NCBI GenBank assembly: GCA_964428315.1
Contig: CAYRXT010000013.1
Span: 1-62,513, forward strand
Length of the DNA stretch: 62,513 nucleotides
Source of the DNA: an uncultured Planctomycetales bacterium
Lineage (GTDB): Bacteria > Omnitrophota > Gorgyraeia > Zapsychrales > CAYRXT01
Direction of reading: 5' to 3'
Shown here: positions 1 through 62,513 of the stretch, piece by piece
Position numbering within the stretch: position 1 is the first letter of the stretch
How the letters are laid out: each line of letters opens with the position of its first letter
Translations under genes and position numbers: made by a program
The notes under the pieces: generated by a model
The model's input: the letters and a program-made list of their open reading frames with translations, nothing else
The model's database searches: none
Told to the model about the DNA's origin: nothing

Positions 1-220
1 CCGAATTCCGAATTTCAGACGGATCAGAAAAGTTTTTGTCATTGCGAGCGACCAAAGGGAGCGAAGCAATCTCATAAAGATTATTCTGACAAAGATTGCT
101 TCGGCGCTCCTTGCCGTCGCTTCTCGCAAAGACGGAGAGGGTGTACGGTCTAAGGATTCGATATTCAGGATTGGGAATTTATTCGGGATTTGGGATTTGG
201 CATTGGGAATTTTGAAATCC
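1..220 (+). repeat. Palindromic interspersed repeat (PR element), copy 1, truncated by window edge
   Basis: Matches 1681-1900 almost base for base. It contains the hairpin GTCATTGCGAGCGACCAAAGGGAGCGAAGCAATC...GATTGCTTCGGCGCTCCTTGCCGTCGCTTCTCGC. The ends are inverted: CCGAATTCCGAAT vs ATTCGGGATTTGGGATTCGG. Confidence 0.9.
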
Positions 221-3200
221 AAAGGAGGTGAAAAATGGTTACCAAAGCGGATTATTTCGACCTGGCGTTCGATCATGTCATCGAGATCGCCCGACTCGAC
301 TGCGTCTTCGCGGCAACGCGCGAGCGCCGGACGGGCAAGACCCGGCTCTTCCTTATTTACAACCATACCGGCAAGGTTTATTTTCGCGATTCTCTTCGTG
401 ACAGGTGGGTTGAGCTGGAGGAGAGGGAGTACAACATCTTCCGTTCCCTCGCCGACCACGCCCTCATGGACCGCAGGATTCCCCGCCTCAGGACCGACGA
501 TATCCCTGATCTCAACTGAGCCGACCGGATGGCAGGGGACTCTCTCGGGTTGCGCCGATCCCCTCAGGCTGGTCCCCCTGGATATGGCGGTTTTTATCAT
601 CTGCTCCTGGCTGATGCTGAAACTGGACATCTTCTTCCTTGAGCGCGCCGCACGCAGGCGGTCCAGGGGTTACGTCACGGGACTGGCCCTGAGTCTGCTG
701 TTGACGTCTCCGTTAGTCGTGAAGTCAGCGCGGTGGATCAAAGGCGGCGGTTCGCCGGTTATACTGCCGGAAGGAACCTGCGCGGCCGTCGCGGGGGCCA
801 TTGGCCTTTCGGTATCGGGTCTGGAGCGGCTGATTACCGCCGTGACCCTCGTGGCGGCCGTCCTGATGTTCGACCACCTGTTTTTCAGAAAGATCTGGAA
901 AAGGTTTAAAGAGAGCAACCCCACCGCGGCGACCATAAACACGTTCCGTTCCCTGGCGAGGTTTGGGTTTATCATGTCGTCCCTCGCGGTTTGTGTCGCC
1001 ATAACGGTCATGGGGCCGGCGGCGCGGGATTCATCCGATCGGGAAAAGGCCGCATTGTCACAGGACAGCCGTCCCGCGGCGTTTTGCTCAGCGGAGCAGC
1101 TTGAGGCCGCGCTTGTGCGTATCAGCCGCACGTGGCGGGAGGAAGGCCGGTACCTTTTTATCAGCTTCCCGGACGGGCTTAACCTTTTTATTCCGCTGGA
1201 CGAGGCGGTACGGGCCATGGGGCCGAGGCCGTCGGACTCCGATGACAACGTGAGCGGCGTGACGTTGTTCACGACCTCGGGCGAAGATATCAGCACCAGG
1301 GCTGTCCTTACCCACGTTACTGCGGTCGTCCGCGATGGGCGCGTTTGCGAAGTCCTGCTTCCGGCCGGTGACAGGCGTTCCCGCCGGACGATACTGGACA
1401 TGGTGGAGAAACATGAGACCGGCTACAGCCTGGAAGGCAGACTGGTTCTGCCCCAAAATGACGATGACGATCAGATTAAAACCGTCGTGGAAGAACACAT
1501 CAAACAAAACCTGGTCAACGAGCGAATGAAGGTGAAAAAGGTTGTCATCGCCGGAGGAAGTTCCGCCCTTCACGCCGGCTTCGGGTTTGGGTGGATCAAG
1601 AAACTGTGGGCGGGGATTGTGAGGCTGGTCGGGAAGGAATCAGGAATGACAACTGACAGATGCCGAATAAATGTCGAATCCCGAATTCCGAATTTCAGAC
1701 GGATCAGAAAAGTTTTTGTCATTGCGAGCGACCAAAGGGAGCGAAGCAATCTCATAAAGATTATTCTGACAAAGATTGCTTCGGCGCTCCTTGCCGTCGC
1801 TTCTCGCAAAGACGGAGAGGGTGTACGGTCTAAGGATTTGATATTCAGGATTGGGAATTTATTCGGGATTTGGGATTCGGTATTGGGGATTTTGCAGTCC
1901 GCCTTGAGGATCCTGAGGCGGATGGTCCCGGCTTTGAGCTCCCGCGCCGCGGCGGTGTCGGCGTTCCTGACGGTCTTTTTCTTCAGCAGTGACCTGCTGG
2001 CGGCCGGAAACCAGGCCGCGAGGTCTTCCGGCCTGGAAGGCCTGGTGATCCTGCTGGCGCTGGTATGTGCAATGATAGAAAAAGCTGACCCTAATGGACC
2101 GGAAATCCGCGAATTGACGAAAGACGAATTGATAGAAAAAGCCATAAGTATTATCAGAAAGCATAATGAAAATAAAGGGGTTATGCCAAGTTTTGCAAAA
2201 ATCACGGTCCAGCCGGGTATGGACTACAGAAGGTTAGAAAAATGTCTATGGGACGTCTATCAGGGCTTGAAGTTGGAGGACATTTCATACGAGACATTTT
2301 TGTTGAAGATCCAATATGACCAATTCATAGGCGAAGAGAGGTGGTCATCTCTGCGGGATTTGGTGAATAATGTTTCAGAAGAAGTTTTGTCGTATTATGA
2401 AAAGCACGGAAAACTAATGAGGCTTCGCGCTATTAAGGATATTTCACGTGGCCAATACAATTTTATATATCCCCTTTTGGCAGAACGATTAATAAAACTT
2501 TTTGCAGAAGAAAAGAAAATCAGCGGCCAGAATCAGGAAGACATTGTTGTTATGATTCACAAAAAATTTAAAACGACAACAACCCGGCCTAATGCCGAAG
2601 AAAACCGGATGACGCTTTCCGGAGAGGGGTGGAAAAAACTGTTTTATGAGGCTGGGGCTGGAGCCGGATTTGATGATAAGAAGTATTGGGATACCCTGGC
2701 AGGGGGGATTGACAATTTGCACGTGGCCGAGACCCAAAGAAAGGTCATTTTTGCCGCGGCGAAAATCTTGAAAAAAGACGTTGATCCCGATGGACTTATC
2801 CGCGATTTTATTTGCTCGAAGGCATTTGTTTTCGGCTTGATCGAGGAATTCGCCGGATGGTTTTGGAATAAGAAGGTTGCTGGTTCGGCGGAGTCTCCCG
2901 GGAAAGGAGATTCAGGGACGGGCGGTATAGATCGCCGTATTATTTATTGGTCGACATTGGTAAGCAATACTCCTATTAACATGGAAAAAGCGTGCTTAGA
3001 GGCGACTGTGGAGTCTCTTTTAAGGGTTAAGGAAAGGCCCGTTGTTATTCGTATCGACTGGCAGAAAGCCCTCCAGTTCGTTGAATCATCCAGTATTAGT
3101 CTTTTCCGGGTTGTTTCTACCATCGGGACGCTTTTAGGAGGATTCGAGGGGCCGGAGCGCAAGTTTTTTGATGAAGCGGATATTGTTCTCAAGAACAAGG

Positions 3201-6200
3201 TTATTTCTCAATTGAATCCACGGTTGTGTCAATCCTTGGCCGAAGAGTTTATTAGTATGCTGGGCTGTCGCGGGGAGGACCGGTCAGTGGACTTATTTAA
3301 AAATTTAATGGACGATGATTCACGCCTGCATGTCCTACAGGAAATTTTTAAAGATTTCGTGGCGTCCCCAAGTACCCCTTCGAGATCGGGATCTAGCCGG
3401 GAAGAGATTGAGAAGGAAGACAAACGGAAAGACATTTTGAGATATTTCCTGCAGAGATGGTCTGGGGTATCCGTATTCGTAAAGGAAAACGCGGGGCATT
3501 TCACATTGTCCTCGATCCTGGCCGAGTACTTTTTAACCCTGTTAGAGGAAGAAAACCTTGATATGACTGATGAGAGCTTTTTTCCTGCGCAAAGGATTGG
3601 GAAGTTAGGGGAATACTTGGGAGAATACGAAGAAATCATTGAGAACCAGGGGGAACGCGTCCGGAGGATCGGTGAAGAACAGCAGAAGGTTTTACGCGAC
3701 GGCTGGAAAAAGCTTGAGCTGGATGGTGTCATAGAGGACTCTCTTAATCAAATTTTGAACAATGAGACGGAACTGGGATTTGACCTTGTGTTTGCGCGGG
3801 AGGTCTACCGGCGTCTGTTCAACAAAGAACTCGTTATCAAGCATGTGAGTGAATTCTTGACGATCCTTCAGCCCTTTTTGGATGAAAGCCCCCAGAAAAG
3901 TTCTCTGGAAGATGCGGTGTATATCGCAGAAAGACATTGTACGAGTAGGGAGCATGCGTTTATTTTGGTGATTGTGCCTATGGTTTGGGCGGTCATTCGC
4001 TTGAAAATTTTAAAAAAGTTTAAAGAATTGGGATTCAGGATTTGGAATGTGTCCGGGGTTCGGGATTTGTTATTTGGGATTATAAGCGGGGCCTTCGGCA
4101 CGACGAAAAACTTCGGAGTCCTGATGCGGGACTTCGCGGCATTCTTCCGGCGGCTGAAGACCTCGCCGCCTGCGCAGCCGCTTCAGGCCTTCTTCAAGCG
4201 TGACAGGAATTCCCGGGGCGTGAGGACGGGGATATGGCGGAACTTTTTTAAAGCCAGAAGATGGCTGTCGCCGGAGATGAACACGTTTGTGTCAATGACG
4301 GCTTTAAGCATGGTTCTCGCGGCAGGCCTTTATTTCTTCGGCAATGTCCTCGCTGGAGACGGGGAAGCGTTTCAGCCTCCGGTCGATCATCTTTTCGCTC
4401 TGCTGTATTTTAAGGTCAAGGCTTATTTTGATCATGTCGGGGGCCTTCGTATGTTTGTTAACCAATATAGCATGCGCCCCGGGAATAGGCAAGACAAGCC
4501 CGCGGATGCTGGTTTTGAAAAAGGAAGAGCCGTCGCCCTTCGCGCCGGCTTCGGGTTTGGGTGGATCAAGAAACTGCGGGCGGGGGTGGCGATAGCGGCG
4601 TTCATGTTTACGGCCTCGCCGTGTCTGGCCGGCGTTATCATGCCGCAGAAACAGCAGGGGGTGTGGGAAGGCCGGGTGCAGGGGATGATTATGATAATCC
4701 TGGGATTGTTATGGATTTATAATATTTGGAAAAAGTGGATAAGAGAACGCAAGATTTTGGAGAAGATGCAAGAAGCGGACGATGATTCGGATTTTGACGT
4801 GATGTCCGCCTTCTCCGGCGCCGAGGCGCTCCTCGCCCTCCTCGCGGCGGTGAAGAGGCTGTGGACGGCGGGCCTGAAGCTGGTCGGAAAGAAATCAGGA
4901 ATGACAACTGACAGATGCCGAATAAATGTCGAATCCCGAATTCCGAATTTCAGACGGATCAGAAAAGTTTTTGTCATTGCGAGCGACCAAAGGGAGCGAA
5001 GCAATCTCATAAAGATTATTCTGACAAAGATTGCTTCGGCGCTCCTTGCCGTCGCTTCTCGCAAAGACGGAGAGGGTGTACGGTCTAAGGATTTGATATT
5101 CAGGATTGGGAATTTATTCGGGATTTGGGATTCGGTATTGGGGATTTTGCAGTCCGCCTTGAGGATCCTGAGGCGGATGGTCCCGGCGAGCGCCGTTCTT
5201 TTTGCCATGGTTTGGGCCGTGGTTCACTGTGCAATGAGGCTGTTTGATGCTGACATCCCATGGGCCGACGAGGCCGCGGCCATGGGGATGGCGGTTCTTC
5301 CGAACGCGATCCTGAAAGATCAAAATCTTAAAAATCGCGCCGCGCAGGTCGTCCGCAGGTTCACGAGCCTCTTCCAGGATAATTCTGATTCGGTGCGTGG
5401 GAAAATCTTCGGCGGGGATTTTGTCCCGAGGCGTTATTCTGTTTATCTGAAACAGCTTGAGAGCGAAAGCGCTTGGGTGGAAGGCGATAGGGTCCTTGTG
5501 GACACGTACTTGGCCGCATGGTCGTCCGGACAAAGTTCTGAGGTGCTGTCATGTATGTGCCGCCGGGCCTCCATAAGGTATCACCTTGATCCAATAGAGG
5601 ATACGCATCCGTCGCCCGGACAGGTGCGGCTTCTTATTTTCACTTTGAAAATCACGAAAGCAAAGTTTCGGGGAAAGACAGCGGCTGATATGCACCGTCT
5701 TTTTTCCAGAAAGGACAACGCGGCTTCCTACGCCCTGTTTGAGAACCGCGTCTCTATGGACGGATTCTCCTGGTTGATGAATGACGAACCCGTCCGCGGG
5801 CGGGTGCTGAAGGCCGTTTGTGCCGCGGGGAACAGGACAGGTAATTTCTCGCTTTTCCTTGAGATCACCGCTCTCGGCCGGGAGGCCGAACCGGACATCC
5901 GGGTTCTGCACAGATTCATGGATAACTGTGACGGTTCGGACGAAAACATCGCGGCCCCATTCTTGAGTCTGCACGGGGACGATTTCCGGTTATACCGTTA
6001 TGTCATGGATACATTGAAGGTGAAGGAGGAGCGGGACCGTGGATCCCGAATATGGTCGGCCGGGCCCTCGCAGATAATCCCTCTTGTGACGAGCGGCTGT
6101 GATTCGCGAGAGGTCCAGGACCGCGCCGAAGATGTCCGGCCGTTTCTGCGTGTCCTGGAGGACTACGCGTCGCAGGCCGGGAGGCATTACAAAAACGGCA

Positions 6201-9200
6201 GATTACTAAAGGCCGTTATGTTTTACCGCATGGCATGGGACATTGTAAGATATCTGGACGGTCCCGGAGAACGCGTCAGCCCCCGCGGGCTGTCGCCGGA
6301 CCGGGACACGGGGAAGGCCGTCGCAAAGGCGAAGGCCTTAACGGCGTTCGGCTATCTGCATTCACTCGATCGCGCGGCGCTTCATCAGGAGGCCTCCGTC
6401 CGTATTACCGGTATCCCCCGACAGAACCGCGGCGTTATCCAGATGGAACATGCGGTCGTACACCTGGCTGGTGTCCTGAGAAATCTGGGAGAATATGAAG
6501 AGGCCTTGAAGCTGATGACCGCCTCCCCGGACGGCACAGAACTCCGGAAAGATATTGTTTGGATTCAGGCCCGGGACAAGGCTTTCACGCTTCTCATCCG
6601 CGTCTGGACGGAAATGGCCGAACGCGAGACGCAAGACTGGGAGGGTTTTATGCGGCGTTTTAAGGCTTTGATGACAGAAAGGAGAATCAGCAGGACAAGT
6701 TATGAAAAGAGACATGAAGAGCCCTTTGCATTTTCCGGCCGGGAAAGCAGGGCGGCGTCTCCTGTATTTCGCGGCAAGATGGATATAGAGACATTCGAAG
6801 GTGACCGGCGGGAGGTCCAGATTCCTTTTCCGTTTTCCGATCCGCTGGAGGCGGAGAAAACAATTTACCTGTTTGTCTTTCGTCTTATGCAGGCGGAGGA
6901 CTTCAAGAAAAGGTTAATCGGCAGTATTGACTATGGGACGCTTGCCGCAGAAGAGATGGCCAGGATCCTCGGGCTGAAGCCGAAAGAGGTTGATATGGAG
7001 TTTAATGCGGTGACTTGTGAGCATCAGTTTTTAACAAATAGCCTTTTGGTAAAGGAATTTCTTAGGACTGTCTGGTGCAAGCCGGTTGTTCTCGTCCGGT
7101 CCGGCGGTAAAACCTATTTGATAAGCGGCCGGATCATACAGACAGACAAAGAAAGCGCCCGACAACTTTTCGCCAGGACGCTTTACGATCACCTTCGTCT
7201 TGTCCCGTCCTCTTGTCTGCCGGACATGACAGAAGATTTCGAGGTTACCCTGTTGCCGAAGGATTTTGAGCGTCAGATTGTTCCTCTTGGATTAAACGGA
7301 CAGGGCGGGCGGGCGTGTACCGTCATGAAGGCCGGACCGGAACATGTCCTGGCAGGATTGGGCAGGGGACCTGTCGGTGACATAGCCCCGGACTTCCTGG
7401 ATTACGTGACGGTCTCGCGTTTGAACACGCTCATTTTTACGGAAGCGCTTCCTGATCAGGTCAAAGAGTTGTATCGGCTTCTTGTTGCTTCCGACGTGAA
7501 GGTGTTATGGATGACGGAACCGGCTTTCGTTTTGACTAAAGACTTATGGGAGCATGATGTAGTAGGGTCCAAAAAGGAATATTTGGGGGTTTCGCGCATT
7601 ATTAAAGACTTGTTGGAGACAATCGCGCATGTTCATTTTTCCCGGTGGTATAAGCTGGGTGATGAGCTGACACTGTTAGTTTCCCGGGCCGGAGGTTTGC
7701 CCGGCAACGGCATTCTGTTATTCGGCACGCCCGGGGGATTTATCATGGAGGCGGGTCCGCGTTCACTGAAAGGCTCGGTATTAACGGAGGACGCGCAGGT
7801 GCCTGGTTATCCGGTGGACTGCCTTGTGAAACGGGTCGCTCCTTTATCCGTTACGGGCGGTGAGACCAAAAACCGGAAAGAGGACCTGGCCGGTCATGTG
7901 GCGCGGGTCATCCGCCGGGGAGGACATGTCTTCATCAGCGCTTGCGCGGTCGGAGCAGCCCAGGAATTTCTGTCACTCCTGATCCAAAAGCAAAAGCAGT
8001 CCGGTTATCCGGAGTTTTCCGTCTATGTCGCGGGATCGGTCTCAAGCATCACGGATTTAATAGACCGATATCCGAGGGTTTTCCCTGTCCGTCCCGGGGA
8101 GAGGCAGCGGCAGGATCCGGGACATGTCTTCATTCATGGCCGCGGCCCGGTGCGGAAACTGGAGGCCTTGCCAGATATGAATAATGTATTGGGTGTGCCG
8201 GGGGTTTTTGTGGTTCCCGAGGACTGGCAGAAAAATCCGAAGTGCCGTTGGATTTTCCGTCGGGTGGCGGCCGGAGCGAAGAACATGGTTATTGATGACG
8301 GCCCACCGGGGCGGGGCCTTCCGTCCTGGACCGGCGGGCCCGGGATGCCCGCTGCTGTCACCGCCGAGACTCTGAAGACCGACATTCTGCCTCCCGACAA
8401 CCCGCAGGATACCGCCGCATTTATCCGAAACGTTGACCCGGCCAGGGTCATCATTACCGGGGTGACACCGCGAGGGGCCGGGCTGTGGAAGAGGGTTCTG
8501 GAGGACGGGCTGAATGGCAGCTATCGCATTGAGACGGCCCGGCCTATGGTCCCGATGCATTTACCATTATCCGCTGACAGAAAGACGCTATTCGATTCTA
8601 TACTAATGACAAAGGAAAGGGGCAGTTTTTACGGTTTATTCATGGCCGCCGAAGCCGCGCTGGCGTTTTGGGTTGCCGGGGTCCTGCGCGCGGCGGCGCG
8701 GCTTCTGTCCCTGCCCGGTTTCGCCGCCTGGTTCGCGCGGACACACACGCGGTTTAAATCACGAATGACAAATAACAAATACCGAATTCCGAATTTCAGA
8801 CGGATCAGAAAAGTTTTTGTCATTGCGAGCGACCAAAGGGAGCGAAGCAATCTCATAAAGATTATTCTGACAAAGATTGCTTCGGCGCTCCTTGCCGTCG
8901 CTTCTCGCAAAGACGGAGAGGGTGTACGGTCTAAGGATTTGATATTCAGGATTGGGAATTTATTCGGGATTTGGGATTCGGTATTGGGGATTTTGAAATC
9001 CGCCGCCGGAGTGGCGAAAAACTTCGGCGTCCTCGCGCGGGACTTCCTGACATTCTTCCGCCGGCTGAAGACCTCGCCGCCTGCGCAGCCGCTTCAGGCC
9101 TTCTTCAAGCGTGACAGGAATTCCCGGGGAGTGAGGATAGGGATATGGCGGAACTTTTTTAAAGCCAGAAGATGGCTGTCACCGGATACGATGAGATCGG

Positions 9201-51200: not shown

Positions 51201-54200
51201 AGTATACGCATCTGGATCAGCGAATTGGTGCCGTCCATTTTGTGTGGCAGAAAGAAAGATCTGTTAGACACTCAAGATGTTTTATCATCCGTAAATTAAT
51301 TAAAAATGGTAAAGATACCACCCATAGGTTGAATGTCTTTGGCGTCATGGCGGCGGTTGGGCAGGTAGCAATAGCGATAGTTTTCTTGGCGATTGCCGCG
51401 TGGGAGTTGCCGCGCATAGGGAAATTAATACTGAGAAACAGCGGGAGGTCCAAAAAGATAGATGGGGAAAAAGTTGCGATATTGGCAATAGAAGACTACT
51501 CCCCTGGAAAGAAGGGGTCAAAAGAGAAAGAGCCAGATATCAAAATAGCCGCCGATATCCTTAAAAAGGCGGGAACCTACTCACAAAAGGAAAAAACAGC
51601 GCGATACGCTCCGAAGAACGTGGATTTTGCGGATATCGTTAAAATCATCAAAGAGAAATCCGTCACGATCCGCGGCATTCTTGAGGGCCGGGAAGGTATG
51701 TTACCGAAGGAAGAGAGGATCGTGCGGGTGCTCGTGAAGGCTCTGCGGGACGCGGGATGGGGTGGCAAGATCCGGGTTTCCGGTTCGAAAAGGCCCAGAT
51801 ACAAGGGGAGGACACAGCAGGAGGATAAAAGAATCGTGATCGTCCAGGAGGATTTTGATCTGGTGAGGAAATCGAACCTGTCGATAGGCACGACGCTTGG
51901 GGTGTTTGACGGCGGGGAATGTATAGGCGCCGTGTCTCTGTTGAATGGTCCGATAACGACTATGATGACAGCGGGGGAGGAAGGAATACGGCATTTCGCC
52001 TATGACGGTGAAGCGTTCATCAAGCGGCGGGAAATTCTTGATTTAAGTCTGCCGACCGACAAGAAATCGACAGTCGCCTTGGGGGGACGATACACTGAGT
52101 GGCATCCGTTATTTCAAAACTACTATAAGGATAACGGGAAAGGGATCCCGGGCAGTGACGGCAAACATTTAAAGACGCGATACGGAGGGATTGTGAGGAG
52201 AGACGGGCGTGTGTACAGCGCACTGGCCGCGAATATGTACAACGCTTTTTGCAACAATGGGTTTGTGAGCGACATTGTGAGCCTGGAAGAGGCGAAGATC
52301 TATGAGAGGTTCACCCGCGCGGCCAAAGGCCGGATGTTATTCATGACGGAATACGGTCGTGAAGCCCAGGAAGAAACTTTGGCAGGACAAACAGTGCAGG
52401 TGTATTTTGGCAACGGCGATGCGGTCAACAGGTTAGAAAAATATTCGGAAGAGAAAAAAGATGGGCATGATAAAGCCCCGTTTGAGGCGCGGGCAGGTCC
52501 GCGGGCCGGATATCAGGGATGGCGTCTGGTCTTAAGAGTCCCGGGCGTTCTGCTGTCCCGGCTCAGGTGGAAGAAGAGTTTAAAGACATTCGTTAAAAGG
52601 CATATGCCGGCGGAGGAATGGAGAGACGATGTGATAAGCGGGGTATTGGCTGTGGCGGAGGCCGCGAAGTGTGTGAGAATATTATACGTCGAGGGAGGAG
52701 AGGGCACGGGGAAGATGGATTCCGGAGGGGCGGAGATGCGGAGGATAGACGCGGAGACGGATGAAATGCTCGCCAAAAATCTGAAGCCGCATGTCAAGAT
52801 ATATTACTCGGAGGATGCCGGTATATTCCAGTCGTTTGAGAACGGAGAAGGTTTTCAAGGGCAAGGCAAGCATATCTGGTACTCCGGTGACGGACTGGAC
52901 GGATCCTCGCTGGTTAAAAGCAACTGCGGAGGGGGGACGATTGGGGCTTTCAGGAAATTCTATGCGGAATCTCCCATCGTCGGCAGGGATGGGAGGCATA
53001 TTGTCGGTTCGATGTTCGTGACCTACGGCGTCAAGGTCGCGTTGATCGTCAGGATCGGCAATAAGGTCTATGAATTTGAGTTAAGGGAAGAGGAATTTTA
53101 CAAGACAGGCCGGATCAGATTGCACCGGAAAAGGAAGGCGCGCGCGAAGGACAAACGCATCGCCGTGGGAGGATCACGCAAACAATGGCCCGAAGGACTG
53201 GAGAAATTTTTTGACAGGTGGTTTGAGGGAGGCGCGGTTCTCGGATACGCGGGCGCGCTAGTCACGGATATCTACGGGATGATAAAGTTTATCCAGGACG
53301 GAGGGAATGGGCTGTTTTCCTATCCCGCCAACAAATTGAGGGTGCGCTCCGAACTGCAGGCGATAGCGGGTATCATAGAGGCGGCGGGAGGGAGAAGTAT
53401 CACCTATGTCCATAAAGACGGGGAATCGGCACAAGACATTCAAAGTCTGCTTGATCTGCCACTGACTCATGAGCCGGACAGCCTTCAACAGCAGAAGGCG
53501 CCTTCTGCGTTTGGGGACGAAAACAGCATAAATGAATTGGAAAGGGCCCTGTCCGGTTCCGGGCGTTATGGCGGGGGATCTGCCGTTCTTTTTGGGACAA
53601 CAATACCGCCGACTGTCATATTAGCCGTGGCATTAATTGCTGTATGGCTGTTGGCAAACAGCATTCTCCGGTCGATGCGAAAAGACTTGGCAGGCGGGGC
53701 CTCTGAGAAAAAGTCCGGTTCCAAAGGGGTTATCGCGGTCATCATTATCGTTTTGATATTGGGATTCTTTCTGTGTGTGAAGACAGACGCCAAGGGCGCT
53801 TCTTTGCGTACCCGGCCGGAGCGTCAAACGGAGAGTCTTGCGGAGCCGGACCGGACAAATCCCGCGGCCGGCAGCACGCGTTTGTATTTAAATATCGGGT
53901 ATGTGGCCGGGATTATTATGATTGCGCTTATAATTTATTTGTATTTGGTTTTGGATGAGGAGGCTCGGGGAGGAGCGAAAATACTGATGGCGGGAATTCT
54001 CATGACCTATTATTTGCTGGGGATGCCCGGGACATCGCCCCAGTCGCGTCTTCCGCGCGGGCTGGATTACGGCGAACTGAACGGAATTTCGGCGGGAGAT
54101 CCTCTCGCGCGGGTCACAAGCCAACGGCGTTATTTGGGTATTCCCGATTCCATGGAGATCCAGAACGTGAGGCCCCTGCCCGGGCGCGGGCGCGCGTACT

Positions 54201-57200
54201 TCGAGGTCCGCATCAACGGACCCCCGGGAAGCCCTCCCCCGCCCAAAATCGCCATGATCATGGGCTGTCCCGCCAGGGATGCCTCCGCGCCTCTGACAAG
54301 GTTTAACGGCTGGTTCCCTGTTTTCCTGGTCCTCCTGATGGCCATCACGCTCATCTGGCCCAAGATGGTGAAGCGGTATTCCGGCAAAAGGACCAATGAT
54401 ATCCCCGTGTATATCTTCCGTTATTCCGAAGGGAACAATGCCTGGAAATTCCTTTGGCTTTACTTGGGCCTGACGATCTTCACGCTCGGGCTGTTCACCT
54501 GGTTCACGCCCGCCCAGAATGACGCGGGGATTCTTCTGCGGATGGTGCTGTTTTTCTTAAATTCCTGCCTGATGATCGAAGGGATCTTCCTCTTGCTTGC
54601 CAATGCCTCTCTGTCCCGAGTCAATCCGCTTAAAGTCATTCTGAATTTCTCTCCCGCTTTCGCGGCGCTGGTAGCCGTGCTCTTCCAGCTCGATGAAGCC
54701 GTCCTGACCGGGTCGTTTGCCGTGCTGTTCTTTGTTCAGTTTGTCTATTTTGCGTCACTGTTTGGACCAATTTTTGTCATGGGTGTTTCAGGAATCCGTT
54801 ATGCGCGTTCCGTGGCCGCGGCGCTTGTATTGAGCGCTCTATTGTTTTTCGGCGTGAGCGCCTTTTTCCTGGAGCGGCCGCAACCCGCGGGCGGCGCAGA
54901 CAGTCCTTTAGTCCGGGAGCAGGTGGAAAATTCGCCTGGGGCGGAGGCGTTCAAAAAGCGTATGGCGGACATTATCCTCTCCAGGCTGGGCGCGCCCGGC
55001 GCACCGTTCAGGGACTGGAAACGCTGGCCTTTCGTGGAGGAATTCTGGGAAGAGGCGGGCATGACGCCCGAAGAGGCCGCGCGGGCCGCCGGGTTGTTCC
55101 ATGAAGAACTCAAAGGCATCCTTTTCTGGTGCGAGGCGCGTTTCGCGCAAGAATATATGAAGACGCAGAGAAGTCTGCCGGGCGGAGGATTTACGTTTAA
55201 GCCTGAATGGGAGTACGACGTGGTTGTACTGACGGTGCTCAGGCTGAAAGGAGAGTCCTGGGAGGCGGTGTGGGCGGTCATCGACAGACTGACCGGCCTT
55301 TGGGTGGAGGAGACAATCGAGGACCATAAGGAAGAGGGACTGTTCAGGAAAACCGGCTGCGGGTCTTCTACCACTCACATTGGCTTCGGGTCAAAGAATT
55401 CTGAGTATACGGTTCTGAATTCAAAAGCCGCATTGGCTGCCGCGATTCTGATTGTTTTCGTGTTTTCAAGTTGTCTTGCGTACATCATCTACCGTTTGAA
55501 TCGCCATGCCCGCGAACGACGCGGCATTCCTGACGCCCGAGAAGGGAGGCCGGTGCCGGGTGTCCTCCCGTATCAGGACGAGGTGCCCCTTGCCATTGAA
55601 CGGGCCGGCCATGATGAGGTTATGAAACGGGTCAAAGAAATAGTCGGTTCAACGGCATCGCCGGAACTGCCCTTAATCCGCTTTGAACCGGTCACCGTGA
55701 AGGATCTCCTCGGCATGATTCGACAAGAATTCTTCAGCCGGGCACCGTCAGAAAAAACCCTGAGCACCTGGATCGAGAAAGACTCGGCCGTGGTGAAACC
55801 GCACATGGGCCCGATGGTTCTCCGGGCCGATTTTCAGACTCTTTTAAATAAGAGATATATTATCGGGATCATCCGGCCCGGATCCGGGTGCCGTTATGTC
55901 GCGTGCTCGGAGTTCGGAAAAGAAAAGAGGCTCGCGCGTCTTCTGATGCCCGGAGAGAGGGCGCCGGTTTACATTGAGCAATCAAGCTTGCAAGCCCTTG
56001 AAGGAAAGACTCTCCGGCTCCTGGGCCGCGCCGGGATGCATACCTTGGACAAGGATGCCGTCGTCCGGGAGGAAGATGTCCACCTCCTGATCAAGGAGGG
56101 CCGGGTCGTCCGGGGGATCATGGAGGGCGAAGATGTCCTCATCACAAAATTCGCCCTTTCCCGAAACCGGAAATACCGGGACGCCCAGTGGCGGTGGCGG
56201 CTCAAGGAGATCACGGACGGACTGCCCGGGGACCCGGCTGTCGCTTTTGCGGCCTTCGAGAAGGCCCTGGAAGGACTCGGCGAATCCCAGTGGGAGAAAA
56301 ACGGGGACGTTTATGCTATCGACGCCCTCCTGGACCTGGCCGCGCTGGTGAAGGAGACGGCCCTTGAGGTCGTAACACACGGGTGTCCCTTTGCCACGGC
56401 CGGGCTTATCGCGGCGGCCCTGCTCCTGCCCGTCCAGTCGAAGACCTTGCGTCGCCGGCGGCTTTTAAACGGCCTGGCCTGCTCCGAAGATTTCGATCCC
56501 GCTGCCGTCGTCCAGAGGGTTCGCCAGGTCCGGAAGACCATGGAGGATTTTGACCTGCGCAACCTTAACAAGGACCGCGGATACGTCCAGAAACACCTGA
56601 AGATGGTCATCGACATGTTCCTCCACAGGCCCGAGGTCGCGCTCCTTTTCATGGCGGCGGAGCTCCACGACCTGCGCGACTGTGCCGGACCGGATAAGGC
56701 CCTGGAGGAAAATGAAAGCCATGTTCTGATGCTGCGGGCCGTGGCCGAGGCACTGTTCATGAAGAAGATCATGCGCCGGATCGAGGGTCTGACGGTGTTG
56801 CCGGAAACAATCAAGGAAATAGACGGTGAAGTCCGAGGCTTATACGGCATGGGCCTGGAAGCCATCAGGAGACAGCGGCATAGGATCGAGCTGTATATCC
56901 GGAACGCCCTGAAAAAAGAGGGGATGACTTCGTTTCGTGTTTCCGGACGGGAAAAGACTTTGCACTCGATCAAGAGGAAGATGGATTGCAGAAAGCCGAT
57001 TAATGAGATGTACGATCTCATAGCGTTTCGTGTGGTTGTAGAGGATTGGGAGACAGCCGAACGGATCACAAGTGTTTTACAGAAAGACAAGGCCTTGGGG
57101 GATGGCGTCGTAAATCTGGAGGTTAGGTCTAAGACCAGCGTGCCGACGCGATCAGGTTTTCAGGCCATTTACCTTGTTTTTGGCATCCCGCTTCCGGAGA

Positions 57201-60200
57201 GCGTCAGCAGGGTGACGGGGAGAGCGGGTTTTCTGCCCTTTGAGGTGCAGATCCAGACGCGAGACGCTTTTGAATTGGGTGAATTCGGCAAGGCCAACCA
57301 CGCGGGTTACGAATTTGATCTGCGGGGCTGGGGTTACCTTCCGCCCAGGACGATCGCGCGGATGAAAGACGACGACCTAGTACGCAACCTCGAGAGCTAT
57401 TTCGAAGCGAACGGCCTGAGAGGCAAGAACTTCGTGCGTTTCCGCGTGCGTTTCCGCGAGAAGGAGTCCGGAAAACGAACGTACACGGTCATTGCCGAGG
57501 TGCCGGAGATACAAAATGGAGACTTGCGAGGGTACAGCACGTTCCTGGACGCGCAGGCCGAGCCGGAGATCGACAAGTTCGGTTGTTACAAAACGGGCCG
57601 CCTGTATATGTTTGACGGATCAGAGAAAGATATCGATGCCGCCTACGCGAAGCTCCTGAGCGGGGACCTTGTCGAGGTGGATTTTGCCGATAAACCGCCT
57701 GAGAAGCTGGTGAAAAAGAAGATAATGTTCTGGCAAAAGGAGAAGGATAAGGATTGCGGTAAGCATGAGTCCAACCCTCCTATGTGGGTGCCCGTGGCCC
57801 CTGTCCAGTCGCCCCGCACAAAGATGCTGGTTTATTTGCTCGGAAAGTGGGATCCCGAAAGCTTGGAACACCTCCTGGGCCGCGAGGACAAGGGTTATTA
57901 TATCCAGATTAGCATAAATGCTCTGCGAGACAAAAGGCGCCTGAAGATCGTGACGGACAAAACGAAAGCCTGTGAAGAGGAGAAAGAACTCCTGGACGCT
58001 AGGACGATCCCCTGGCCTGATCCGAAAGAGCTGGACACGGTCCTCCTGCCCCTGATCCTCTGGGTCGCCCAAAGAGGCAAAGCGGCCCTTGAGGAATTGA
58101 AAATCTTGGCCGGTGATGACGAGTTTGGGGCACAGGAGAGCGCGCTTACTGACAAATACAAAGAGAAGGGTGAGCACTTGCAGACCGTTATTACGGCCCG
58201 GATGCTCACAAAAGTTCTGAAGGAGGAGTACGGGCTGACGGAAATTCAGGATAGAAATCAAAAATGGAAAGAGATCCGGGAGCTTTTGCAAGAGTGGGGC
58301 CTGTTCTTAAAAAAGGAGGAAGATGCCTGGAAAGTTGACGCGGATAAAACAAAAAGGGAGTGGAAAAGAAGAAAAGAGATTCTCGATAAAAAGCCGGTCC
58401 TGGGGGTGGTTGATCTCCTCGGGGCAACCGATCCCGAGACCCGGGAAAACGTTGACATTTTGCAGACCCTGGCGGAAAGGCTCGGGTTCAAGTCCATGGA
58501 AAACGACAGGGGTCTGGCAGAGATCCTAGTCGCTGCCGTGACGGTGGACGATGTTCAGGACCGGCTGATGGAGTTGATCAAAGAGGAAAAAGGATACAGA
58601 CGCCGGTTGAAGGAGAAGATGCAGGTTTCGCTTTGGGCCTTCCCCGGACCGCTTGCCGCGGCCTTGATGCTGCCGGGCGTTCTGACGGTTTGGTTAAAGT
58701 TAAATCTGAAGGGGCCGGTCCCTTATGGGGACGGCTGGGCAAAAGAGAATCATCCGCGCCGGGGCAGTCGTAAGACGACCACCCTCTTTCCGTGGCTGGT
58801 GGAGGGTCGCCGGCCCGGCGCGGATTTATCTTTAACCCCAGCCCCAGGTGACTGTCACCGCTGTGGTGACTGTCACCTGGGGCTTTTGCACAGCCTCGGC
58901 TGGGGCGATGTTTTCAATTATCTGAGGGGGTTGCTTCGCCGAAGGGGGCTTCGCCGCCCCCGGCATACTTCGTCACGGGGGTTCGCGATGACAGCGGGCT
59001 TGGGCGGCAAGGCCGCGGCGGCGGTCATTGTCGCGCTGGTCCTTTCCCGCCTGGGTGTTCCTCTGGCTTGGACCCTGCCTCTTGTGCTGGCTGCCCTGTC
59101 TTTCCAGGCGGGAGGCGGCGGTCAGCGGGACGCGGACACTCCGGAAAAGGTGATCCGGAAACTGGCAGGTCAGTTTGCATATACCCAGGATCAAGTGCAC
59201 GAGCTTGTCCGAAGATTCCGGGAGCGGGGCCTGGCCGCCGCGCGGGAGGGAGAAAAGACAGGCGAGCTGTTCAAAACGGTGGTTATCCCGGTTGAGCGGG
59301 TGCCCGGGACCCTGTACCACGAGGAGGCGTATATCTTCGCCCGGGCCATGGGGCTCGACGCGCGTATCGTGGAGTTGTCTCCGGCTTCCGGCCGGGATTT
59401 CGAAGGGTACGGGGTCATGATCCGCGAAAAAGAAAAAGTCTGGCTGATCGACCTGAGCAATGTCCGGGCGCCCCTGGGAGGGCCGTTCGACGCGGTCGTT
59501 GATAAGGAGAAAGGCGAGGATATCCTCCTTAAAAAAGAAGAAAAGGTTCACGTCCTGGCGCGGGTCCTGGACACGGACGCTGTTCTCGCCCTGAGATGCC
59601 GCCTGACCGGCGACCTCTTGCGTGATGAAAGATATTTCAAGAGCGCCGCCGCGCTTTATGAACAGGGCCTGGAGTACCTGCCGGGAAACACTACGCTCCT
59701 TTTGCGGCTGGGCATGGTCTATACGCTTTGGGCCCGGCGGGAGGCCGCGCGCGCCCAAAAAACAACCACGTGGCGCTATGAGGCCGGGAAGCGTTACGAC
59801 AAAGCCCTTCACTATTACCTGGAGGCGCTGGCCTTACAGAAAGACGACAGGTCTTTGTTAAACACGATTGGCGGCGTGCACAAGTCCCTCGGGGACATCG
59901 CGAAAAACCGCGAGGGAGCTGTCTTCCGCTACAACATGGCGCTCTTACTTTACAAGAGGGCCCTGGATCTGACCGGTGAGGATGACAACGCCGAAAAGAG
60001 CATCTTCAGTTTCAACGCCGGGGTTGTCTCCGAGCTGACCGGACAGTTTGAAACCGCGGCCGGGTTTTACAGGGAGGCTGCGGAGTTAGACCCGGCCAAT
60101 CCGGCCCCCCGCATCAAGCTGGGGCATGTGTATTTTGAAATGAAAGACTGGGACCAGGCCGCCGCGAGTTATGAAAAGGTGCTGGAAGAGTTCGGATGGA

Positions 60201-62464: not shown

Positions 62465-62513
62465 TAGTGACAAAAGTAACATGAAAGAAAAATGACAAAA
62501 AAATAGATTTTGT

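Follow-up and report, generated by a model that had tools for sequence, protein, structure and literature searches.

Giant bacterial open reading frames (ORFs) have been catalogued by the thousand, and their origin and their reading as one chain are open questions. The contig described here bears on both from sequence alone. The window is one entire contig, as the 94-aa ORF at 235-519 has a database record on a contig of exactly 62,513 nt, so both of its ends are assembly ends, and it raises the question of whether a frame that stays open over this whole length is a gene and how such a gene could have come about. We consider the frame to be probably a genuine protein-coding gene of an uncultured bacterium, kept open by selection and truncated at the 5' side where the assembly broke within a repeat. 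If the pattern found here is general, the domain content of giant proteins would have to be read differently, as embedded enzymes would not all necessarily be functional, and intact bacterial genes lying antisense within another gene, which are rare, would gain a further example.

Coding potential of the open frame

The frame and the features at its two ends are as follows.

2..62464, + strand: giant ORF in frame +2, 20,820 codons, open to the contig 5' end; candidate starts TTG197 and ATG584
235..519, + strand: ORF of 94 aa in frame +1, encoding an orphan protein, with a perfect Shine-Dalgarno (SD) sequence AAAGGAGGTGAAAAATG at nt 221-237; frame +2 is open across it
62462..62513, + strand: triple stop (TGA-TAG-TGA at 62462-62470) and A-rich tail

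A six-frame stop count over the whole contig found frame +2 free of stops between nt 2 and 62461 (20,820 codons), against 842, 883, 919, 315 and 599 stops in the other five frames, the first two values being those of the plus strand. Judged by these counts, a frame under no constraint should contain about 850 stops. The longest listed ORF ran from 197 to 62464 with a TTG start (20,755 aa), and the runner-up of 605 aa (25952-27766, minus strand) sits in the codon-aligned antisense shadow frame. A first-pass annotation had claimed one stop-free frame +2 over the window, hundreds of missing stops and a next-longest ORF of 605 aa, all of which agrees with these counts. It had also argued that the frame is not a shadow ORF and that a series of named domains lies in it, and it had asked for periodicity and codon usage per tile. 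Frame +2 ranked highest of the six by codon-usage log-likelihood in 404 of 415 100-codon windows, the order GC3 > GC1 > GC2 held in all 21 three-kb tiles, and all domain matches from Pfam, NCBIfam and PDB sequence searches, those of the named domains included, fell in this frame, which is thus the best-coding one nearly everywhere. Along the gene, GC3 varied between 0.38 and 0.82. That the 62 kb are translated as a single chain we infer from the evolutionary signature only.

Contig ends and assembly support

Copies of nucleotides 1-220 recur at 1681, 4936 and 8782 with 97-98% identity, and the 5' edge does lie inside a repeat, as the first-pass annotation had stated. Its further claim that the 5' end of the gene is not reached stood as likely, since frame +2 has no stop over nt 235-583 (116 codons), an outcome of about 1% by chance at the off-frame stop density of the contig and the sole argument for an upstream extension; the gene caller on a Logan unitig, however, begins the large gene at ATG584, downstream of the small ORF. 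Frame +1 has the top codon score over this small ORF, and its lead over the other frames extends from about nt 121 to 571. The contig holds at least 20,626 codons of the gene. The Logan unitig (1,434 nt, run SRR7048225) is identical to nt 168-1601; hence the contig sequence derives from real reads and this part of it was reproduced by an independent assembly. At the other end, the 3' tail bears a weak likeness to the left arm of a palindromic element described below, with the terminal TGA aligning to a TCA codon of internal copy 5.

Exact internal repeats measure 118-179 nt, repeats of 220-335 nt with 97-98% identity concentrate in the first 13 kb, and further exact pairs start at 26366/26498 and 39107/40601. 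Given the exact 118-179-nt repeats, segment order or copy number may be mis-assembled. In short-read assemblies, which break at repeats, genes of this kind often fill an entire contig (10.1101/2023.11.21.568195; 10.64898/2026.06.07.730766). No phylogenetic marker genes were found on the 62,513-nt contig.

Domain architecture of the predicted product

Transmembrane (TM) segments were assigned by a Kyte-Doolittle hydropathy scan alone (19-mers), which gave 67 hydrophobic segments over the whole ORF. These segments and the recognised modules are arranged as follows.

65..17755, + strand: N-terminal TM-rich arm (aa 22-5918), 40 hydrophobic 19-mers, repeated cassettes with conserved AGFGFGWIKKLWAG ends
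7271..8299, + strand: metallo-beta-lactamase/beta-CASP RNase-like module (aa 2424-2766; Integrator-11, 2.6e-4; TIGR03675, 2e-10, far under cut-off)
13745..14437, + strand: complete FliA/WhiG-type sigma module (aa 4582-4812; Sigma70_r2 and r4 exceed the Pfam cut-off; 1rp3 residues 16-236 of 239)
17756..50008, + strand: TM-free centre (aa 5919-16669, ~10,700 aa) with a single isolated hydrophobic peak inside a soluble-looking module
18248..20125, + strand: the first two copies of a paralogous module that occurs four times and has invariant Cys, His and Asp; TPRs come next
28454..29674, + strand: BNR/Ycf48-like beta-propeller, fn3 and CARDB (Pfam/PDB sequence search)
33347..34309, + strand: peptidase S8, subtilase (aa 11,116-11,436; 7.7e-32; DTG, HGT and GTSxSxP motifs present)
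34991..35989, + strand: FG-GAP/VCBS-type repeats
39650-40507 and 48866-49828: the remaining two paralogous Cys/His/Asp modules
45182..45571, + strand: NosD-type parallel beta-helix, with kindred paralogous modules at aa 15239-15879
50009..62008, + strand: C-terminal TM-rich arm (aa 16670-20669), 26 hydrophobic 19-mers
52703..53542, + strand: FBPase/SBPase-like module (motif DGLDGSS)
56528..57313, + strand: Rel-type module comprising part of the HD domain and the (p)ppGpp synthetase domain (RelA_SpoT, 1.9e-7; 6s2t residues 104-352)

Together about 20 distinct non-TPR families were recognised, and the centre also has an unassigned TIM-barrel-like module. The sigma module covered positions 1-223 of the 224 of TIGR02479 (FliA/WhiG) with 117 bits, under the cut-off of 189.6. 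There was no Pfam match in the ORF to a glycosyltransferase, methyltransferase, glycosyl hydrolase, SAM enzyme or NUDIX domain, nor to dockerin or TSP3 repeats, and none to a C39 peptidase in the Pfam tiles. SecA family domains (SecA_DEAD, SecA preprotein-binding) were likewise not found in the tiles over all 20,820 aa at E <= 1e-3; the missing N-terminus could carry one.

The predicted product would be a polytopic membrane-anchored mosaic megaprotein with TM-rich arms around an exoplasmic TM-free stretch of ~10,700 residues. The arms would hold modules of cytoplasmic type (beta-CASP RNase-like, FliA-type sigma, FBPase-like and Rel-like), and the centre binding and degradative ones (TPR, BNR propeller, FN3, CARDB, TIM-barrel-like, S8, FG-GAP, beta-helices and Ig-like sorting domains). 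By analogy, this predicted architecture fits the role in cell-surface attachment and digestion that was proposed for other giant bacterial proteins. The sigma, Rel and FBPase modules and the internal sorting domains make little mechanistic sense in one membrane protein unless they are processed or relics.

Sorting domains inside the frame

Among the modules of the centre were sorting domains of the type IX secretion system (T9SS).

31217..32473, + strand: T9SS-related module, to which ordinary 'T9SS type A sorting domain-containing' proteins of ~760 aa align co-linearly with their C-terminal ~410 aa
36311..36550, + strand: second internal T9SS type A sorting domain (aa 12,104-12,183; TIGR04183, 31.4 bits, cut-off 23)

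The C-terminus of the ordinary homologues aligns to '...KKKLLLL' at nt ~32473, where the giant ORF continues. Approximately 75 of the best 150 matches of an exhaustive HMMER search were ordinary proteins with their own C-terminus at giant aa ~10822-10824; one of them, MBN1547914.1 (767 aa, 'T9SS type A sorting domain-containing protein'), was co-linear over residues 352 to 766 with an E value of 5e-32. The last 127 nt of the second domain share 97.6% identity with nt 32363-32489, and the sorting-domain test also returned a Pfam match to FlgD_ig (2.9e-13). At least four occurrences were counted, with internal positions at aa ~10,824, ~12,187 and ~16,200 of 20,820. The likeness to T9SS type A cargo (TIGR04183/Por_Secre_tail) consists in scores above the NCBIfam cut-off and in the co-linearity of one module with the final ~410 residues of the cargo. 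In cargo proteins, however, the domain lies at the extreme C-terminus, whereas here it is internal and the frame reads on.

Palindromic elements and antisense toxin-antitoxin operons

Some 7% of the frame departs from ordinary coding sequence. Nested palindromic elements, three intact toxin-antitoxin (TA) operons in antisense orientation and the one +1-frame ORF make up this share, which is selfish or foreign DNA held in frame. The palindromes are the following.

1..215, + strand: element copy 1, truncated where the contig ends, with 97-98% identity to its internal counterparts
1640..1900, + strand: nested element copy 2, outer inverted-repeat arms and an inner ~100-nt hairpin GTCATTGCGAGCGA...GCGAAGCAATC, in frame and without a stop
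4895..5155, + strand: nested element copy 3
8745..9000, + strand: nested element copy 4
10139..10295, + strand: element copy 5, 57-nt outer arms only, without the inner hairpin
12845..12985, + strand: two more GAGCGAAGCAATC-type hairpins, one in another register relative to the ORF, both stop-free in +2
60640..60800, + strand: REP-like GC-rich palindrome of a distinct type, spotted by eye, in frame, with a non-coding-like codon score

All five copies, like the extra hairpins, lie inside the ORF, and the five are stop-free in one shared register; the four besides copy 1 are all internal. The predicted RNA fold of copy 2 has an energy of -111 kcal/mol (z = -6.7). Linker peptides encoded by the elements include VFVIASDQRERSNLIK and IGNLFGIWDSVLGILK, and signal-peptide-like N-termini come after the elements. 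Rickettsia palindromic elements (RPEs) are selfish palindromes inserted in frame within protein-coding genes (PMC10969869). Those found here resemble RPEs as multi-copy palindromes of ~100-260 nt that are in frame and stop-free inside an ORF and add a peptide segment; the likeness is one of placement, with no apparent relationship in sequence, and an Rfam search gave no match. Unlike RPEs, they are nested, with outer arms and an inner hairpin, and clustered within one gene. They are placed at what appear to be the borders of former genes, so that an origin as captured intergenic repeats, not as insertions, is possible.

The TA loci were found on the opposite strand.

4018..4498, - strand: decayed copy of the TA-bearing segment 8929-9787, with a 62-aa antitoxin fragment (4304-4492) left and the PIN gene deleted
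9094..9781, - strand: TA operon of a PIN_3 toxin (9094-9507; PIN_3, 3.4e-23) and a partner gene of 93 aa (or 74 aa) at 9500-9781
36806..37323, - strand: hicBA operon, HicB at 37039-37323 (3.2e-11) and HicA at 36806-37042 (1.3e-16)
40757..41635, - strand: TA island of DUF433 (41393-41635; 8.5e-20), a DUF5615 PIN-like gene (41036-41389; 6.5e-21) and a CopG_antitoxin-like gene (40757-41029; 4.7e-5)

The genes are adjacent or overlapping, have their own SD sites and match the family profiles of PIN_3, HicA, HicB, DUF433 and DUF5615; the likely start of HicB is M20, behind GGAGGTGAAAAATG. Judged from these features the three operons are intact. They share small adjacent or overlapping pairs, full-length family matches and SD sites with ordinary type II TA operons (HicBA, PIN_3 with partner, DUF433/DUF5615), but here they are wholly within, and antisense to, a far larger ORF that is open throughout. 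Within the three loci, frames +1 and +3 hold 8-31 stops each and frame +2 none. When the same TA proteins were given resampled synonymous codons, the probability of frame +2 being open was 0.10-0.44 per gene and about 1e-5 jointly. The decayed segment and its intact counterpart differ in length by 378 nt, that is 3 x 126.

Selection on the frame and on its residues

All 29 blastn self-matches had an end offset of 0 modulo 3, and repeat spacings were multiples of 3 throughout. The four Cys/His/Asp modules gave dN/dS values of 0.35-0.47 and the central paralogues 0.35-0.55; by this measure the central paralogues are under purifying selection in frame +2. N-terminal paralogues, at 0.6-0.92, showed differences spread evenly over codon positions and no stops, which suggests that the repeated segments of the N-terminal 13 kb are almost neutral at the amino-acid level. 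For the near-identical N-terminal copies alone, a simulation gave a joint probability of about 0.012 for staying stop-free. Selection thus appears to be split: absolute on the frame and relaxed on the residues in filler. In such filler segments it would act on the frame and on the absence of stops, not on residues, which implies that ribosomes must read through the filler to make the downstream parts.

Relation to known giant genes

No homologue of the tested stretches was found at stringent thresholds, and no giant relative in GTDB representatives, JGI metagenomes or the exhaustive HMMER search. The first-pass annotation had named the giant TM-rich ORFs of Omnitrophota and a few other phyla as the nearest cases, and the literature supports this choice (10.1101/2023.11.21.568195; 10.64898/2026.06.07.730766). 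The giants of West-Roberts et al. 2023 exceed 90,000 bp per gene and 30,000 aa per protein, carry SecA_DEAD in most members and have C39 or S8 near the N-terminus (10.1101/2023.11.21.568195). They share with our gene a very long single ORF spanning a short-read contig, many TM segments, long domain-poor stretches, divergent domains, TPRs, beta-helices, an S8 peptidase and, as proposed there, a role in surface attachment and degradation. In contrast, no SecA_DEAD, C39, dockerin/TSP3, glycosyltransferase, methyltransferase or NUDIX domain was detected here, the 20,820 aa on a contig that may be 5'-truncated are below their threshold of > 30,000 aa. The S8 domain lies at aa 11,116-11,436 as numbered from the contig edge. 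The enzymes of their Archaeovorin subtype (glycosyl transferases, methyltransferases, glycosyl hydrolases, SAM enzymes, NUDIX) were not found here, where only a peptidase and the TIM-barrel-like module were seen, and neither were the many dockerin and TSP3 repeats of the Dockerin-type subtype. Their text does not mention antisense genes, palindromes or sigma factors (10.1101/2023.11.21.568195).

The membrane-anchored 'multi-enzyme' long proteins of Nielsen & Lui 2026 are also similar, being proteins of >= 10 kAA with TM helices or a signal peptide, tiled by many distinct Pfam families with none dominating, with cytoplasmic-type enzymes in a TM-anchored chain, nucleotide-diverged internal repeats and mostly unique sequences. 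With 20,820 aa, 67 hydrophobic segments and ~20 distinct non-TPR families, the product falls into their class 1. Their hallmark sugar-metabolism or histidine-kinase modules were not found here, whereas our gene has T9SS-type sorting domains. Their text mentions neither nested antisense TA operons nor in-frame palindromes, and TA genes occur in it only as flanking genes or cargo (10.64898/2026.06.07.730766). This kind of gene is already known from uncultured bacteria, and the present contig adds in-frame palindromes and intact antisense TA genes without a frame break.

Origin of the gene and alternative explanations

The ~7% of foreign DNA, the 29 in-register repeats, the near-neutral stop-free paralogues and the mid-ORF sorting domain matching the C-termini of other proteins indicate that the gene grows by stop-free accretion under selection for continuity, and we regard accretion as the route of gene construction as largely established. 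Growth would proceed by segmental duplications, always in register modulo 3, by capture of once-independent genes (the fossil C-terminal sorting domain in mid-ORF, the complete sigma factor), by in-frame insertion of palindromic elements in a manner comparable to RPEs and by insertion of whole TA operons on the opposite strand, with only those events retained that leave frame +2 open. Tentatively, this might act as a ratchet that takes in neighbour genes, the palindromes between them and mobile cassettes each time the frame happens to stay open, after which read-through selection alone holds them. Megaproteins would then be part filler, making up a measurable fraction of the chain, and the nested TA operons, expressed antisense, may be addiction modules that shield a repeat-rich gene from recombinational deletion. 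The analogy is to TA cassettes in chromosomal superintegrons, to which such protection is attributed.

Rather unlikely, in our view, is that the contig carries a stop-free array of once-separate genes which, along with intergenic palindromes, lost their stops, that discrete products arise by internal initiation or polyprotein cutting (e.g. by the embedded S8) and that the open frame mainly keeps ribosomes on a long transcript. The fossil C-terminus, the signal-peptide-like N-termini behind palindromes, the complete stand-alone-type modules (FliA-type sigma factor, Rel N-terminal region), in-frame SD and ATG candidates at 11150 and 58619 and a GC3 mosaic pointing to mixed origins would all agree with this, and self-cleavage by C39/S8 domains was raised by West-Roberts et al. 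(10.1101/2023.11.21.568195). Yet an SD and start codon are absent at most junctions, and internal initiation alone does not need a stop-free frame; the origin is moreover shared with stop-free accretion, so that the two differ only in the mature products. It is unlikely as well that the gene is complete on the contig, with its start at ATG584 or, given a shift into +2, at ATG235, and encoding ~20,626 aa, the 5' palindrome being an ordinary intergenic copy. The perfect SD and ATG235 directly behind the element, the lead of frame +1 in this region, the choice of ATG584 by the gene caller, a hydrophobic helix after M195 and the element-like tail behind the stop, which places an element also outside the ORF, speak for it. 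However, frame +2 is open over nt 235-583, ATG584 lacks an SD, the same SD precedes nested genes at other places in the ORF and the other four element copies are all internal.

That chimeric joins or collapsed copies at near-identical repeats produced an artificial long frame is very improbable. Exact and near-exact repeats in the first 13 kb, the two further exact pairs and the position of both contig ends in or near repeats would provide the opportunity, but mis-joins cannot remove ~850 expected stops and nt 168-1601 recur exactly in the Logan unitig. As each unique segment is stop-free and all repeat copies share one register, any permutation of segments would still be open. Chance, or a non-functional relic frame, is hardly conceivable: apart from the near-neutral dN/dS of the N-terminal repeats nothing points to it, and it is effectively refuted by the stop count (0 against about 850 expected), the codon-usage ranking and the dN/dS of the central paralogues, in line with the intact S8 triad motifs and the invariant Cys, His and Asp columns.

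Reading frame and coding signal

In the window, frame +2 runs over nt 2-62461 (20,820 codons) without meeting TAA, TAG or TGA and closes with TGA-TAG-TGA, whereas the remaining five frames carry 842, 883, 919, 315 and 599 stops. The first-pass annotation, which had claimed one stop-free frame over the entire window, was correct in this respect. A mechanical ORF call gave 197..62464 with a TTG start (20,755 aa), and the second-longest ORF, 605 aa on the minus strand at 25952-27766, occupies the codon-aligned antisense shadow frame of this giant ORF; these lengths and the TTG start agree with the earlier figures. Three-nucleotide periodicity per tile and codon usage, both suggested there as checks, also favoured frame +2: GC content by codon position followed GC3 > GC1 > GC2 in 21/21 three-kb tiles, and the frame ranked first of six by codon-usage log-likelihood in 404/415 windows. 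Stop-codon reassignment was ruled out, as the frame lacks stops of any kind and the ORF closes with three of them. Sequence statistics together with evolutionary signatures support the core of the earlier interpretation, namely that this is a genuine giant gene and belongs with the TM-rich ones already known.

The window is the entire contig (62,513 nt). The Logan unitig SRR7048225_372977 (1-1434) from run SRR7048225 is 100% identical to nt 168-1601; the sequence therefore derives from real reads, with this stretch reproduced by a second assembler, and a synthetic sequence is ruled out. Repeats cause such genes to fill whole short-read contigs (West-Roberts et al. 2023, bioRxiv 10.1101/2023.11.21.568195), and the unitig ends on both sides at repeats of the present contig. 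The window also holds direct repeats, one pair of which is tandem:

Exact direct repeats (100% identity, 118-179 nt)
26366-26629 (exact pair 26366/26498)
39107-39264 and 40601-40758
8905-9083 and 10207-10385
4270-4387 and 9466-9583

These repeats point to duplication or gene conversion in the very recent past, and it is here that segment order or copy number could be mis-assembled. No relatives turned up in GTDB representative genomes at either the protein or the DNA level. Neither the C-terminal 1,200 aa nor the Rel region had a homologue at E <= 1e-5 among 8,000 candidates each.

Protein architecture and comparison with known giant genes

A hydropathy scan found 67 TM-like 19-mers, of which 40 are in the N-terminal arm (aa 22-5918), 26 in the C-terminal arm (aa 16670-20669) and one is a single isolated hydrophobic peak between these TM-rich arms. 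The domains named in the first-pass annotation (S8 triad, sigma-70 r2/r4, Asp-boxes, beta-helix, TPRs, RelA/SpoT and FBPase) were all matched in frame +2:

Modules of the giant protein
Centre (aa ~5919-16669): TPR arrays
Centre: BNR/Ycf48-like propeller, fn3, CARDB
Centre: FlgD_ig / T9SS-type sorting domains, at least 4 occurrences
Centre: Peptidase_S8 (7.7e-32), with DTG, HGT and GTSxSxP motifs visible in the translation
Centre: FG-GAP repeats and NosD-type beta-helix
Arm, aa 2424-2766: metallo-beta-lactamase/beta-CASP RNase-like stretch
Arm, aa 4582-4812: complete FliA/WhiG-type sigma factor
Arm, aa 17568-17847: FBPase/SBPase-like module
Arm, aa 18843-19104: Rel-type HD/synthetase module

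Little of the first 4,500 aa matches any family, the beta-CASP stretch being the exception. The sigma module covered positions 1-223/224 of the FliA/WhiG NCBIfam profile at 117 bits, under the family cut-off, and its Pfam r2 and r4 both exceed their own cut-offs. Directly after it, at ~14440-14850, a second region-4-like helix-turn-helix ('LYLDELPPKQIANHFELTTACINEIRERM') was seen by eye, followed by a hydrophobic helix; this arrangement might serve as a membrane tether for the sigma module.

Protein self-comparison revealed numerous in-frame paralogous modules with 26-100% identity. GC3 ranged from 0.38 to 0.82 in 200-codon windows, with 2100-3600, 29100-29700 and 50100-51300 contrasting with 14700-28000. 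This is unusually heterogeneous for a single gene, and the swing suggests modules differing in origin or age.

One paralogous module of ~220 aa occurs four times, with TPRs on its downstream side:

Cys-His-Asp/TPR paralogues
18248-19144
19232-20125
39650-40507
48866-49828

Its Cys, His and Asp columns are invariant in all four copies (dN/dS 0.35-0.47). An AlphaFold2 model of the module had a mean pLDDT of 71.8, and Foldseek against the PDB matched the TPR tail alone and not the catalytic-looking core; a 'transglutaminase-like' reading of the invariant residues, made by eye, is for that reason unconfirmed. No JGI metagenome matched the profile of the four paralogues or an exact 40-mer.

The giant ORF as such belongs to an already known kind. 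Omnitrophota ORFs reach 85,804 aa; they combine numerous TM regions with divergent domains, among which SecA_DEAD and C39/S8 are frequent, and a role in attachment and cell-wall digestion has been proposed for them (bioRxiv 10.1101/2023.11.21.568195). In contrast, SecA_DEAD, C39, dockerin, TSP3, GT and NUDIX were not detected here, so that membership in these Omnitrophota families cannot be shown, and the T9SS-type sorting domains point to no specific lineage. A catalogue of 916 proteins of at least 10 kAA, most of them sequence-unique, has a maximum of 147,155 aa, TM helices or a signal peptide in 94%, and one class in which a membrane-anchored chain is tiled with many unrelated, often cytoplasmic enzymes (Nielsen & Lui 2026, bioRxiv 10.64898/2026.06.07.730766). 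The same work gives 5,761 public ORFs of at least 10 kAA. It is this membrane-anchored multi-enzyme class that the giant ORF resembles in how it works and looks. It is set apart, and made worth pursuing, by its in-frame palindromes, nested antisense toxin-antitoxin (TA) operons, fossil C-terminus and apparent selection on the frame only. A limited text search of both preprints turned up nothing on nested or antisense genes, palindromes, sigma factors, fusion or polyproteins. The wider literature, in an equally limited search, yielded no earlier case of a giant gene with antisense TA operons nested inside it.

Palindromic elements and nested genes

The palindromes, the antisense genes and a small ORF in frame +1 were not part of the first-pass annotation. 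The palindromes form a family of elements, with ~57-nt outer inverted arms that enclose, except in the fifth copy, a ~100-nt inner hairpin of the GTCATTGCGAGCGA...GCGAAGCAATC type:

Element copies (~260-nt nested palindrome)
1-215: cut at the contig end, 97-98% identity
1640-1900, 4895-5155 and 8745-9000: 97-98% identity
10139-10295: fifth copy, inner hairpin missing
12845-12985: further hairpins

The copy without inner hairpin suggests that one element may have inserted inside another. With a fold energy of -111 kcal/mol (z = -6.7), the element scores as non-coding-like in codon usage, and no family reached the gathering score in Rfam. All copies are free of stops and share a common register, encoding filler peptides such as VFVIASDQRERSNLIK and IGNLFGIWDSVLGILK in frame +2. 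Upstream of the copies a conserved 'AGFGFGWIKKLWAG' end is encoded, and downstream signal-peptide-like starts (RRMVPALSSRAAAVSAFLTVFFF...). In-frame palindromic elements are common to this ORF and to Rickettsia, where RPEs are the precedent (PMC10969869). An integron attC array was rejected, since inspection by eye showed no core of the GTTRRRY type and the cassettes are fused in frame. A different, GC-rich REP-like palindrome was seen by eye at ~60640-60800, where the last TPR block has ended and the C-terminal polytopic domain has yet to begin; it is in frame and translated as '...SSPRVLSGDRSLSLLGPRLRGNG...'.

Nested genes were sought by comparing all 239 off-frame (non-+2) ORFs of at least 58 aa with Pfam. 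Codon log-likelihood was dropped as detector; it missed DUF5615 and is unreliable for nested genes because the GC3 mosaic confounds it. Matches in the Pfam scan were confined to TA families, every one on the minus strand, and three intact loci lie antisense within the giant ORF (9094-9781, 36806-37323 and 40757-41635):

Nested genes and decayed copy
9094-9507, minus: PIN_3 (3.4e-23)
9500-9781, minus: partner gene upstream of PIN_3
37039-37323, minus: HicB (3.2e-11), overlapping HicA
36806-37042, minus: HicA (1.3e-16)
41393-41635, minus: DUF433 (8.5e-20)
41036-41389, minus: DUF5615 (6.5e-21)
40757-41029, minus: CopG_antitoxin-like gene (4.7e-5)
4018-4498: decayed duplicate of the PIN-bearing segment (intact: 8929-9787)
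235-519, plus: 94-aa ORF in frame +1 (221-519 with its Shine-Dalgarno sequence)

Several of the antisense genes have good ribosome-binding sites, that of HicB being GGAGGTGAAAAATG. A look-up of the HicA, PIN_3, DUF433 and DUF5615 sequences gave no exact entry on record. The 94-aa ORF is preceded by a perfect Shine-Dalgarno sequence, AAAGGAGGTGAAAAATG; over 235-519 the codon score is highest in frame +1, with coding-like usage, and the ORF was called as a gene on contig and Logan unitig alike. The protein database returned only the product itself and no homologue. Elements, antisense genes, frame +1 ORF and decayed TA copy together take up ~4.5 kb (~7%) of the frame.

Probable selection for continuity

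Across the three TA loci, frames +1 and +3 contain 8-31 stops each and frame +2 none. With the proteins fixed and synonymous codons resampled, the probability of an open frame +2 was 0.10-0.44 per TA gene and ~1e-5 jointly. The decayed copy has lost the PIN gene but still contains 62 aa of the antitoxin (4304-4492); the copy is 378 nt shorter than the intact one (3 x 126), so its decay kept frame. Nucleotide self-matches ended at offset 0 modulo 3 in 29/29 cases, and all repeat spacings were multiples of three. Central paralogues showed dN/dS of 0.35-0.55 and N-terminal ones (aa 500-4400) 0.6-0.92, the latter with differences even over codon positions. None of the N-terminal paralogues had acquired a stop, for which the simulated chance was ~0.012 for the near-identical copies alone. 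The simplest reading would be that in these N-terminal stretches the residues hardly matter, yet ribosomes must pass through.

Proposed growth by accretion

When aa 9900-11099 were searched exhaustively by HMMER, 242,034 matches were obtained at E <= 1e-3. Among the best 150 of these the longest was no more than 4,041 aa, and about half align their own C-terminus (within 3 residues) to aa ~10822-10824 of the giant protein, where a T9SS-type sorting domain finishes in '...KKKLLLL' (frame +2 sequence ...KKKLLLLSCGEGD...). Six proteins among the matches listed show co-linearity for 280-410 residues, running to their own C-terminus. One of them is MBN1547914.1 from a Syntrophaceae MAG, a 767-aa 'T9SS type A sorting domain-containing protein' whose residues 352-766 match the giant protein (BLASTP, E 5e-32), and the giant ORF continues beyond. 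Judged from these alignments, the sorting-domain end is a fossil protein end in mid-gene. Some HMMER matches contain 8-15 tandem internal copies of the same Ig-like domain, and its internal use is thus not unprecedented by itself; the argument for a fossil end rests on the co-linear matches. The signal-peptide-like starts behind the palindromic copies, the conserved 'AGFGFGWIKKLWAG' end ahead of them and the GC3 mosaic also speak for accretion.

The 50-nt tail past the real stop (62462-62513) shows weak similarity to the element's left arm plus the sequence upstream of that arm (score 42.5; background 99th percentile 40.5), and in this alignment the terminal TGA faces TCA (Ser) in internal copy 5. 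At most, this hints that junctions inside the ORF used to be stops.

The 5' end of the gene

The gene caller places the start of the large gene at ATG584, beyond the 94-aa ORF, and M195 opens a hydrophobic helix. A start at ATG584 is disfavoured, because frame +2 is open over nt 235-583 (116 codons; a ~1% event at the off-frame stop density of the contig), ATG584 has no Shine-Dalgarno sequence, nested genes bearing the same Shine-Dalgarno sequence as the 94-aa ORF are found elsewhere in the giant ORF, and the four remaining element copies are all internal to it. A programmed +1 frameshift from ATG235 was not supported, with no canonical slippery site. The gene probably continues upstream of the contig.
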